From positions 1-20,254 of the forward strand of contig JAWLHR010000028.1 of assembly GCA_041690295.1 (NCBI GenBank): a stretch of DNA of 20,254 nucleotides, written 5' to 3'. The position numbers were made by a program, and so were the translations under genes. Below the pieces are notes generated by a model. That model did no database searches. It was not told the DNA's origin and saw only the letters and a list, made by a program, of their open reading frames with translations. The number at the start of each line of letters is the position of its first letter. Positions within the stretch are counted from its first letter, which is position 1. This DNA comes from Bdellovibrionales bacterium (GTDB lineage Bacteria; Bdellovibrionota; Bdellovibrionia; Bdellovibrionales; UBA1609). This document shows, piece by piece, positions 77 through 20,227 of the stretch.

Positions 77-288
77 GGGTCCATTCCATAGGCACAGTTC
101 AGAAGGCATCCGAGAAGCTCACGCACCGGTTCGGAGAAGCGGTTCTCCACGCTTGGTAGTGGGATAGACTCAGATACCTAAATGCTTGTGCTTAGTTGAT
201 TTTTGACAATGACCGACCACGAACCGAAGAGAACCAGAGAACCCCATGTGATCGGAACAATCTGTAAACTATGTGTCCGGAATGGACC
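77..288. mobile_element. Possible degenerate miniature IS481-like element (MITE-like remnant) abutting the tRNA-Pro(GGG) 3' end
   Basis: GGGTCCATTCC at 77-87 is inverted relative to GGAATGGACC at 279-288. The right end carries two tandem subterminal motifs (CCATGTGATCGGAAC and CTATGTGTCCGGAAT). There is no ORF and no target-site duplication. The IS481 assignment is from my recall of that family's end motifs, not a search. Confidence 0.4.
164..288 (-). repeat. Left copy of the long inverted repeat (partner 20125-20227)
   Basis: The reverse complement of 258-288 equals 20125-20155 (31/31). The reverse complement of 164-235 matches 20156-20227 (70/72). The left copy has 22 extra bp (236-257). 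Confidence 0.95.
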
Positions 289-297
289 GAGAGAAAA

Positions 298-374
298 TGG
301 TCGGCGCGACTGGATTTGAACCAGCGACCTCTTGCACCCCAAGCAAGTGCTCTACCGGGCTGAGCCACGCGCCG
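298..374 (-). tRNA. tRNA-Pro(GGG)
   Basis: The minus strand reads CGGCGCGTGGCTCAGCCCGGTAGAGCACTTGCTTGGGGTGCAAGAGGTCGCTGGTTCAAATCCAGTCGCGCCGACCA. It is a 77-nt cloverleaf with anticodon loop TT-GGG-GT, T-loop GTTCAAATC and an encoded CCA. Confidence 0.97.
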
Positions 375-18224: not shown

Positions 18225-18240
18225 GGGCATAGGCCTTGCT
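18225..18240 (+). promoter_or_regulatory. Putative sigma54 promoter of the trehalase gene
   Basis: GGGCATAGGCCTTGCT fits GG-N10-GC with TTGCT. It sits in the intergenic gap about 35 nt before ATG18275. Confidence 0.5.
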
Positions 18241-18274
18241 TCGAAGGGCCTTATCGATTACCCGTGAGCCTTTA

Positions 18275-20008
18275 ATGTTAAAAAATCAGCGGTTCGGGGT
18301 CCGCATATTGGCCCCCGTATTGACATTATTTGTCGCACTTCCTGTAAGTGCCAAAGAGGCAACCTGCGAGCTTCTCCTGGTGCCCGATGTTTATAATCTA
18401 AACATCGTCGAGGGGCGCAGGCCTCAGCCGGTGGAGTACGCTCAGCCGCTGTCGTCGCCTGGAGTGAGCGACAGTTGGTTGAAGCTAGGCCGCCGGGCCG
18501 TGGCTTACCCTGATTTTAAATTTTTGGCCGATCTCATTCCCAATCGAATTTCCCAGCAGGAGCGGCGGGCGGTTATCCAAGACGCCAAAGTTTTTCGGCG
18601 CCGGATTTTTTCGCGATTGATTCAGTCGGGAATGACGGAGCGAAAGGCGGTGTCCCTCGCGCAAGCCGCCTATGCCCGCTACGTGATTCAGCATCTGTTC
18701 ACTTGGAAAGAAGAACTTAAGCCGCTTGCGGATCGCACTTATCCACGGCACCGCATTTCCCGCTGGGCGCGAGGATTGGATCAATCAAAAGTGAGCGCGG
18801 CTTTTGATTATGTGGATCGGACCTGGTCGGACCTGACGCGGGTTTCGCCTGAGTTTTCAAAGGGCAGTTTATTGCCAAGTCCGTTTCCCGTGATGATCGC
18901 CGGTGGACGGTTTCGAGAATCTTACTATTGGGACACTTATTTCGGCGCCCTCGGTTTGATCGAAACGGGCCGTCTGGATCTGGTGGCGGGCCAACTCGAA
19001 AACTTCCTGCACATGATTCAATTTTTTGGGCGGGTTCCCAACGGTTTTCGTGATTATTACCTGACCCGTTCGCAGCCGCCGGTGATCAGCCGCATGGCCC
19101 TTTTGGTGTTTGAAAATTCCAATCATCCGGAAAAACTCCGCTGGCTCAAAGAAAGAGTTTTTCCGATCTTACAGCACGACTATCACCGGTTTTGGATGAC
19201 TCATCGTTTGGATGAGGCCACGGGATTGAATTTTTACTCCGATGATCGAAACGAGCTCAGGCCTGAACGTCATGCCAATGATGATGAGCGTGAGTTGGGG
19301 GAAAGCTTTCGCGATGTGAGAGCCCAAGCGGAGTCCGGGCTCGACCACACCGATGCGTTGATGTACCGGACGGCGCGGGTGGCTTCCGTCAGTTTGAATG
19401 CCTTCCTCTACGGTTATGAAAACGATCTGGCGCGAATGGCGGAGCTGATCGGCGACGCGGCTTCAGCCCGGGTCTATCGGATGGCGGCCAACCGGAGAAA
19501 GATCGCCATGAACCGGCTGTTGTGGGATCGGGATTACGGGGTCTATCGCAATTTGGATCTGGATTCGGGGCGGATGACTCAAGTGATCCATGCCGATATG
19601 TTCGCCGCCCTTTATACCGGTGTGGCCAGTCCGGAGCAGGCGAGGAGTCTGCGGGACATCGCGCGGGCCATGCTGGAGCGTGAGGGTGGGTTGATGTCCT
19701 CAACCGTGCAAAGTGGGAAGCAGTGGGACGGAAATCATGGGTGGGCGCCCATTCATGTGATGGCCATTCAAGGCTTGGCGCGGTACGGGCTCAGGGAAGA
19801 TGCTCAGCGCCTGGCCCGCAAATGGGTCAATGCCCTGGCCGAGGTCCATGCGCAAACGGGGACCTTTTATGAGAAAATCGATGTTCTTCGGGTCTCACCG
19901 CCGTTTGAAGATGGCACCAAGTACCCGACGCAGACCGGGTTTTTATGGACCAACGCTTCATTTGTGTGGGCTTTAAAGTTCTTAGGTGTTGAATTCACGC
20001 CGCTTTAG
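18275..20008 (+). CDS. Secreted GH37 trehalase-family glycosidase
   Basis: Sec signal ending VSA-KE. Motifs [46 protein letters not shown] and QTGFLWTN. Confidence 0.92.
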
Positions 20009-20036: not shown

Positions 20037-20113
20037 CGGGGCGTGGCGCAGCCTGGTAGCGCGTTTGCTTCGGGAGCAAAAGGTCGCTGGTTCGAATCCA
20101 GTCGCCCCGACCA
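20037..20113 (+). tRNA. tRNA-Pro(CGG)
   Basis: CGGGGCGTGGCGCAGCCTGGTAGCGCGTTTGCTTCGGGAGCAAAAGGTCGCTGGTTCGAATCCAGTCGCCCCGACCA: 77 nt, anticodon loop TT-CGG-GA, CCA encoded. Confidence 0.97.
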
Positions 20114-20124
20114 TCTTAATGTAG

Positions 20125-20227
20125 GGTCCATTCCGGACACATAGTTTACAGATTGGGTTCTCTTCGGTTCGTGGTGGGTCATTGTCAAAAATCAACTAAG
20201 CACAAGCATTTAGGTATCTAAGTCTAT
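20125..20227 (+). repeat. Right copy of the long inverted repeat (partner 164-288), starting with an IS481-like end GGTCCATTCCGGACACATAGTTTACA
   Basis: 101 of 103 bp are identical to the reverse complement of 164-288, apart from a 22-bp indel. Similarity stops after AGTCTAT at 20227. Confidence 0.95.

Follow-up and report, generated by a model that had tools for sequence, protein, structure and literature searches.

The stretch of DNA analysed here (the window) is a complete contig of 20,254 nt (C28) from the 2.88-Mb, 30-contig assembly of a Bdellovibrionales bacterium, and both of its ends break in repeats. Near either end lies an intact tRNA-Pro gene, and behind each gene stands one of exactly two copies of a 31-nt sequence (20125-20155 on the + strand and 258-288 on the - strand), which agree without a mismatch and of which 100 shuffles of the window yielded no match. 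An earlier note on this DNA had placed these copies 11 and 9 bp behind the CCA ends of the two genes, in the same orientation to the tRNA and with spacers of different sequence, and exact matching together with ARAGORN confirms each of these points. The feature that it had drawn at 20114..20155 contains a real motif, but position 20114 belongs to the spacer and the motif begins at 20125; its description of the copies also has to be amended, the left one being really 45 nt long (244-288) and both being truncated by a second shared sequence (20156-20227 and 164-235, 97% alike). Both are dead remnants of the right end of an IS481-like element, cut off by a later ISL3-type insertion (Table 1). The transposase gene belonging to the stub at 20125..20155 would be on the - strand, and the last 3-4 nt of the spacer at 20114..20124 are likely to represent one copy of a target duplication, judging from complete relatives. 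The T-loop of tRNA-Pro(CGG) occupies 20089-20099, with G53 35 nt before the element end. An ordinary trehalase-family gene (18236-20008, + strand; PF01204, E 3e-93) lies immediately 5' of this tRNA.

Table 1. Features of the window associated with the two IS481-like right ends.
Feature	Position	Strand	Basis or remark
tRNA-Pro(CGG), target gene, intact	20037..20113	+	ARAGORN
Candidate recognition site, tRNA C48 to C62 (variable-loop end, T-stem 5' strand, T-loop)	20085..20099	+	Putative role
11-nt spacer of target DNA behind tRNA-Pro(CGG)	20114..20124	+	Sequence
IS481-like right end read inward, 31-nt stub: 11-nt terminus and first of two internal repeats of ~25-nt period	20125..20155	+	
ISL3-type element end, truncates the 31-nt stub and continues into the contig break	20156..20254	+	86-90% match to copies in relatives; ISL3 transposase adjoins in relative genome G020
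tRNA-Pro(GGG), second target gene, intact	298..374	-	ARAGORN
Candidate recognition site, tRNA C48 to C62 of tRNA-Pro(GGG)	312..326	-	Putative role; G53 33 nt before element end
9-nt spacer of target DNA behind tRNA-Pro(GGG)	289..297	-	Sequence
IS481-like right end, 45-nt stub ending within the second internal repeat	244..288	-	
Stub of an ISL3-type end (164-235) with an additional 8-nt copy of its terminal unit in front (236-243)	164..243	-	

Other mobile elements were noticed as well. The ISL3-type element, too, accumulates behind tRNA genes, at distances that vary: each of its five ends in the host genome (in the window and on contigs C13, C14 and C22) follows a tRNA or tmRNA, and in genome G020 six of nine ends, all oriented alike, are found no more than ~260 nt downstream of a full tRNA, two more standing behind remnants. 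The terminal 6-8 nt of this element form tandem arrays of up to about ten units. Islands of 20-39 kb with a serine recombinase occupy the extreme 3' end of tRNA-Ala, tmRNA and tRNA-Met genes in three genomes (G054, G046 and G169), a host locus (C19:57-1721) being grouped with them, and behind a gene restored by such an island an inverted T-loop-like stretch lies ~20 nt after the CCA. Positions 1-100 of the window and 15 host contig ends carry the end of yet another multicopy element, in two variants with a conserved target-like flank; an ORF start of this element on host contig C1 presumably belongs, by its signature, to an IS110-family transposase.

The first 20 nt of the 31-mer occur seven times in the host genome, and all seven right ends lie 9-11 nt behind a tRNA, with spacers of 9 nt at Pro-GGG, Ala-GGC and Phe, 10 nt at His and Met, and 11 nt at Pro-CGG and Pro-TGG. 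Four right-end copies run into contig breaks, and a matching left end is present at two other contig ends. Translation of the four longer right ends gives a 16-residue stretch resembling the family transposase at its C-terminus, and the first 7-8 residues of this protein can be read from the two left ends; the flanks of these left ends agree with the spacers at His and Phe in 3 nt, which suggests that the left ends pair, across contigs, with the right ends at those genes. A search of the host assembly for the transposase gene gave no match, the element body being unassembled, and placing four public sequencing runs on the window end did not recover it. The link to a transposase therefore rests on these short end peptides and on relatives.

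Complete copies in relatives are 1287-1300 nt (~1.29 kb) long and carry a single ORF of ~390 residues. Two repeats ~25 nt apart are present in each element end, ~75 nt precede the start codon, and the gene extends into the right end, so that neither a second gene nor a guide RNA could be accommodated; no TnsC ATPase, TniQ/TnsD or Cas targeting gene lies between the ends, where this ORF is the only one. Nor is the element bounded by a recombinase gene and a repeated tRNA 3' end: its gene product is a DDE protein, the duplication that it makes is 3-4 bp of the spacer, and such repeated tRNA ends as occur nearby are those of separate islands. The transposases of relatives contain the Pfam domains rve, rve_3, HTH_32 and HTH_23, with two HTH regions and a C-terminal beta-barrel, and D148, D208 and E251 are invariant in 77 sequences. 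The layout that characterizes IS481, one ORF combining an HTH at the N-terminus with a DDE (rve) core, is thus present in relatives, where the motif does flank an rve/IS481-like transposase, as the earlier note had supposed in calling it an IS481-family DDE terminal repeat; the textbook TGT terminus is what the end lacks. While TGT...ACA termini are given as a family trait in the available part of PMC11406308, the right end here reads GG or TG and rarely TGT, its first five bases at 59 loci being GGTCC (27), GGTGT (12), GGTCT (10) or others (10). TGTCC right ends are common in the end-pattern set (set 1, below), and left ends at 60 loci start with TGT (32), TGC (16), TGA (11) or otherwise (1). 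Duplications of 3-4 bp fall within the 2-15 bp reported for the family, not at its usual 6 (excerpt of PMC10045372). For two proteins, both from a branch of the family without fixed offset (see below), the best NCBIfam model was NF033577 (IS481), at 199.1 and 207.9 bits (E 1e-58 and 2e-61) and below its cut-off of 224, and the ISNCY model NF033594 scored 33-36 bits against a cut-off of 250. Several relatives carry the RefSeq name 'IS481 family transposase', and YagA/ISEc19 of Escherichia coli, the sole named IS481 relative compared, is 31% identical to the clade query. Since it behaves as IS481 but misses the TGT end and the HMM cut-off, the element is an IS481-like subgroup. The right-end pattern has no match in viral contigs, and tblastn against phage returned only two distant matches of ~30% identity. 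A resemblance between the element terminus and the tRNA T-loop was noticed in passing.

The position of the right end was counted in three collections, whose loci are partly kin rather than independent, and the figures are counts, not probabilities. Set 1 came from a scan of 4 of 64 parts of genome contigs with the right-end pattern, which gave 119 loci (~2200 stretches are estimated overall) from Pseudomonadota, Acidobacteriota, Chloroflexota, Bdellovibrionota, Bacteroidota, Omnitrophota and other phyla. After five loci with less than 60 nt of flank had been left out, 65 of 114 had a full tRNA or tmRNA within 14 nt and 24 a T-arm motif only (together 89), while 25 had neither, two of these being left ends of a related branch. 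The distance from G53 to the element end was 33 nt in 48 loci, 34 in 25, 35 in 6, 32 in 3 and 36 in 1; 33 nt was the value at 27 of 59 intact genes versus 21 of 24 3'-half remnants (p=5e-4). Set 2, the best 80 of 589 metagenome transposase matches, was chosen by protein and blind to flanks, and 59 loci were evaluable once 12 lacking a right end, 6 with short flanks and 3 duplicates had been excluded. A T-loop with at most one mismatch lay at 33-35 nt in 41 of them (43 counting called tRNAs, 48 at two mismatches), the T-loop background in the host genome being ~0.0014 per 7-nt window, and left ends, as a control, had a tRNA or T-arm at 1 of 60. The third set consisted of five rhizobial genomes picked because they already had a match; its 30 ends comprised 15 at a full tRNA, 11 at a T-loop, 2 others and 2 with short flanks, so that 26 of 28 evaluable ends were positive. 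In the host's order (30 loci) only 4 intact tRNAs were found at 10 nt, and 5 acceptor-only remnants at 9 nt. Two different elements (~69% and ~63% identical to the query) lie, with different spacers, 9 nt behind the same tRNA-Arg(CCG) of Sinorhizobium meliloti pSymB, which we take to be the only tRNA gene of that replicon. Enrichment of the end behind tRNAs, on which the earlier note had staked its proposal in advance, is strong, and we regard it as almost certain that a widespread IS481-like subgroup homes to tRNA genes by real targeting, its right end mostly 9-10 nt behind the tRNA and in one orientation.

Which part of the tRNA gene is read can be approached through sites that lack some of its parts. 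No CCA lies 8-12 nt away in 53 of 216 non-redundant right ends, 13 of which belong to the branch without fixed offset. Among the remaining 40 main-clade sites, 16 have a T-loop-like sequence at 33-34 nt, against 0.3% per window elsewhere, and 24 do not. C48 is present in 15 of these 16 sites and G49 in 13, both positions being outside the search motif; several pair only 2-3 of the 5 T-stem bases. Three of the 16 are tmRNA ends or a decayed tRNA and 13 are not called as tRNA, about half of the latter representing one related rhizobial motif. An Rfam scan of nine tRNA-like or T-loop-like loci gave no match. The CCA as a required signal is ruled out by these sites with a T-loop at the same 33-34 spacing, and the near-fixed distance from the CCA that had been claimed earlier is better described as a fixed offset set relative to the T-loop, the CCA sometimes being absent. 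That the target is a tRNA gene was likewise correct, but the restriction to tRNA-Pro was not: seven different host tRNAs and the tRNA types counted in relatives exclude it, 17 amino-acid types and tmRNA having been seen as targets. Leu accounts for 0 of 114 targeted tRNAs versus 8 of 72 untargeted ones (p=4e-4), a background that is small and derives about half from one genome, and Ser, long-armed like Leu, is hit 22 times. All four tRNA-Leu genes of the host genome carry T48. Against the same 72 tRNAs, C48 is found in 112 of 114 targeted versus 60 untargeted (p=3e-4 with Leu, p=0.19 without) and G52 in 105 of 114 versus 53 (p=0.001 with Leu, 0.005 without). Because 16 of 40 sites without CCA keep a T-loop at 33-34 nt and no tRNA-Leu is hit, the DNA sequence of the T-arm is likely to be the signal, with no need of the CCA.

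Two rhizobial sites deserve separate mention. On a plasmid of Rhizobium sp. Pop5 the element stands between rtcB and the gene of an RNA-binding protein, 9 nt downstream of a 3' end that resembles that of a tRNA; this raised the suspicion of a Y RNA, for which Rfam gave no match. A 21-nt intergenic rhizobial motif, built from a T-loop-like half and a conserved tail of 10 nt, is present without any tRNA in 12 of 151 genomes, and 13 of its 14 matches in these genomes are without the element. Two recombinase signatures tried on ORFs near the motif matched none of them; the motif is perhaps the scar of a tRNA-mimicking attachment site.

Target duplications are present in 14 of 49 set 2 elements with both ends (3 bp in 10, 4 bp in 4) and absent from 35, about one being expected by chance, and in 5 of 10 finished-plasmid copies with both ends, these having been drawn from 12 hand-picked plasmid records out of 69. 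Missing duplications may result from chimeric assembly of multicopy elements or from later deletions. All four 4-bp duplications occur at a 10-nt spacer; imprecise cutting at the right end was considered as the source of 9 versus 10 nt spacing and rejected, as 4-bp duplications explain most such cases better. Several left ends start 2-6 nt after another right end, an arrangement compatible with a circular intermediate or with repeated insertion at one site.

An AlphaFold model of the transposase (pLDDT 86, 77 sequences) has its best Foldseek matches in ShCAST TnsB and IS21 IstA. Neither the model nor the DNA between the ends of the autonomous copies examined contains an extra DNA-binding domain or a partner gene, in agreement with the earlier proposal of a DDE element with no known targeting protein. 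The C-terminal barrel (residues 326-375) is a candidate target reader: its identity is 0.70 within the fixed-offset clade and 0.29 to outgroups, compared with 0.73-0.76 and 0.50-0.60 for the catalytic core, a pattern that is a correlation only. According to the accessible text of PMC10122671, IstA and MuA share the same barrel. A Pfam search with the barrel alone gave no match, a protein atlas placed it in unnamed clusters and offered Mu-transpos_C_2 (0.87) as a lead only, and a sequence search of the PDB returned only weak retroviral integrase cores. In a quick tree with SH-aLRT support, the fixed-offset sequences and a nested branch form one group (support 99). The nested branch (11 sequences, support 100) has lost the fixed offset, many of its ends lying 12-170 nt from tRNA ends and others at none, and it differs in the barrel and in a linker at 56-60. 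Other targets were observed among the relatives. A neighbouring branch (support 100) includes four copies whose left end lies 3-5 nt behind tRNA 3' ends; three relatives of 40-45% identity, from Turneriella and Leptospira plasmids, have the right end ~20 nt from a dif-like (Xer) sequence, possibly a second origin of Xer-site targeting outside IS1202; and five more distant ones, including E. coli YagA/ISEc19, adjoin REP-like palindromes, the latter two kinds of site having been judged by eye.

On balance we favour, as reasonably probable, that the site is picked by direct readout of T-arm DNA by the lone transposase. A transpososome, predicted to be TnsB/IstA-like, would bind a motif extending from about C48-G49 through G52-G53 and the T-loop to C61-C62, whose asymmetry would turn the right end to face the tRNA; this DNA, about three helical turns from the insertion point, would be read by the C-terminal beta-barrel. 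The tRNA and its CCA stay intact, which makes the landing place safe and universal. Target arms are short in the TnsB strand-transfer structure (available part of PMC9527255), so that contact 21-33 bp from the cut would need a geometry beyond the one seen there. A wider proposal, which we hold only tentatively and at less than even chances, is that the barrel is the evolvable selector of a lone DDE transposase of ~390 residues that reads a bacterial 'B box' (the tRNA T-arm), and that different branches use it for a right end 9-10 nt or a left end 3-5 nt behind tRNAs, for dif-like sites and for REP-like sites.

Alternative explanations differ in how much of the targeting they accept. The targeting may be real and the transposase recruited by another protein at the T-arm, either a large serine recombinase on its tRNA attachment site or a host factor, as in the proposal for IS1202 and XerCD; such a partner would account for the long reach. 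Serine-recombinase islands use the same tRNA ends: sites with only an acceptor and CCA are island far ends in all three readable cases, those with the matching tRNA or tmRNA found within 40 kb, while four of the seven acceptor-only remnants have no tRNA in the stretch read. A gene for a 555-aa Resolvase/Recombinase (contig C19:57-1721) adjoins one host left end, and relatives adjoin dif-like and REP-like sites, dif and REP being protein-bound sites. Yet 17 amino-acid types, tmRNA and many phyla are more than one recombinase family should cover, the non-tRNA plasmid sites carry intact duplications, and we know of no bacterial protein that binds T-arm DNA generally; recruitment is in our estimation unlikely, if a serious contender. 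Less probable again is RNA as the signal, the transposase either binding the T-loop of the nascent tRNA or being guided by a cellular tRNA that it carries and that pairs with the T-arm DNA. The different spacing at intact genes and 3'-half remnants (33 nt in 27 of 59 versus 21 of 24) could reflect transcription, and a borrowed guide would accept stemless T-loop-like DNA too. Against this, the spacing is unchanged at sites that lack a CCA and form only 2-3 T-stem pairs, the nine such loci scanned have no Rfam match, and the element is without room for an RNA of its own.

It is very improbable that insertion is loose and that copies survive only behind tRNA genes or are carried there by islands. 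Roughly 20-25% of the sites lie away from tRNA sequences and islands do cluster at tRNA genes, but selection would not confine the ends to a 2-nt window and a single orientation (1 of 60 for left ends) with ever-different spacers, nor would it be expected to place two different elements with different spacers 9 nt behind the one pSymB tRNA-Arg. The 31-mer could finally serve an integrase as attachment arm or regulate the tRNA-Pro genes, given that both window copies lack a transposase and stand behind tRNA-Pro; this we consider negligible, as at four other host tRNA genes this end leads on into the coding sequence of the transposase, and in relatives it bounds complete elements with duplications.

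The element bears on a general point: dedicated targeting proteins or a guide RNA are considered necessary for offset targeting of the Tn7 type, and here a sharp, oriented offset is seen with an element of one gene. Natural controls are at hand in tRNA-Leu as a non-target, T-loop mimics that are not tRNAs, the nested branch without offset and relatives with other targets, and they make the choice of a distant site by a lone DDE transposase directly testable. The targeting accounts for the remains of transposons that lie behind tRNA genes in many genomes, and a compact integration tool could be derived from it. If the barrel is the selector, this would be the smallest natural safe-harbour integrator, able to work in almost any bacterium and to be retargeted by domain swap.

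Use of tRNA genes as safe landing sites is also known from Ty3 and other retroelements that target Pol III genes, and the T-loop sequence is the eukaryotic B box. The safe landing is common to both; the Ty3-like elements are retroelements that insert at the gene start and are tethered by transcription factors of the host, whereas the present one is a DDE element that inserts behind the gene. No account of IS481-like elements that target tRNA genes, at a fixed offset or otherwise, turned up in the literature searched, subscription journals, ISfinder and TnCentral lying outside its scope and possibly holding a prior note. With the IS481 family the element shares its one gene, an HTH with rve/rve_3 DDE core, short terminal repeats and a short target duplication, and it differs in duplicating 3-4 bp rather than mostly 6 (excerpt of PMC10045372) and in its fixed-offset tRNA targeting. 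An IS481 element of Pseudomonas fluorescens SBW25, with 49-bp inverted repeats, is described in the accessible portion of PMC11708052 as inserting into REP sequences with defined orientation and position; like the present one it makes an oriented insertion at a host repeat, but the repeat is REP, not tRNA. The ISAba32 subgroup of the IS1202 family is, in the available text of 10.1101/2022.12.17.520857, a single-gene DDE group distantly related to IS481, with the left end 5-6 bp from Xer sites, 5-6 bp duplications, oriented insertion at fixed distance and tandem re-insertion at one site. Its transposase is larger and of a different family, and the element studied here instead places its right end, behind a tRNA, with duplications of 3-4 bp. 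Tn7-like and CAST elements of types I-B2, I-D and V-K, as far as the available part of PMC11406308 describes them, also use tRNA genes, each type particular ones, and need TnsC and TniQ/TnsD or a guide RNA. They have in common with the present element an offset, oriented and harmless insertion beside a conserved gene and, by prediction, a TnsB-like fold, but the present element uses most tRNA types with a single gene.
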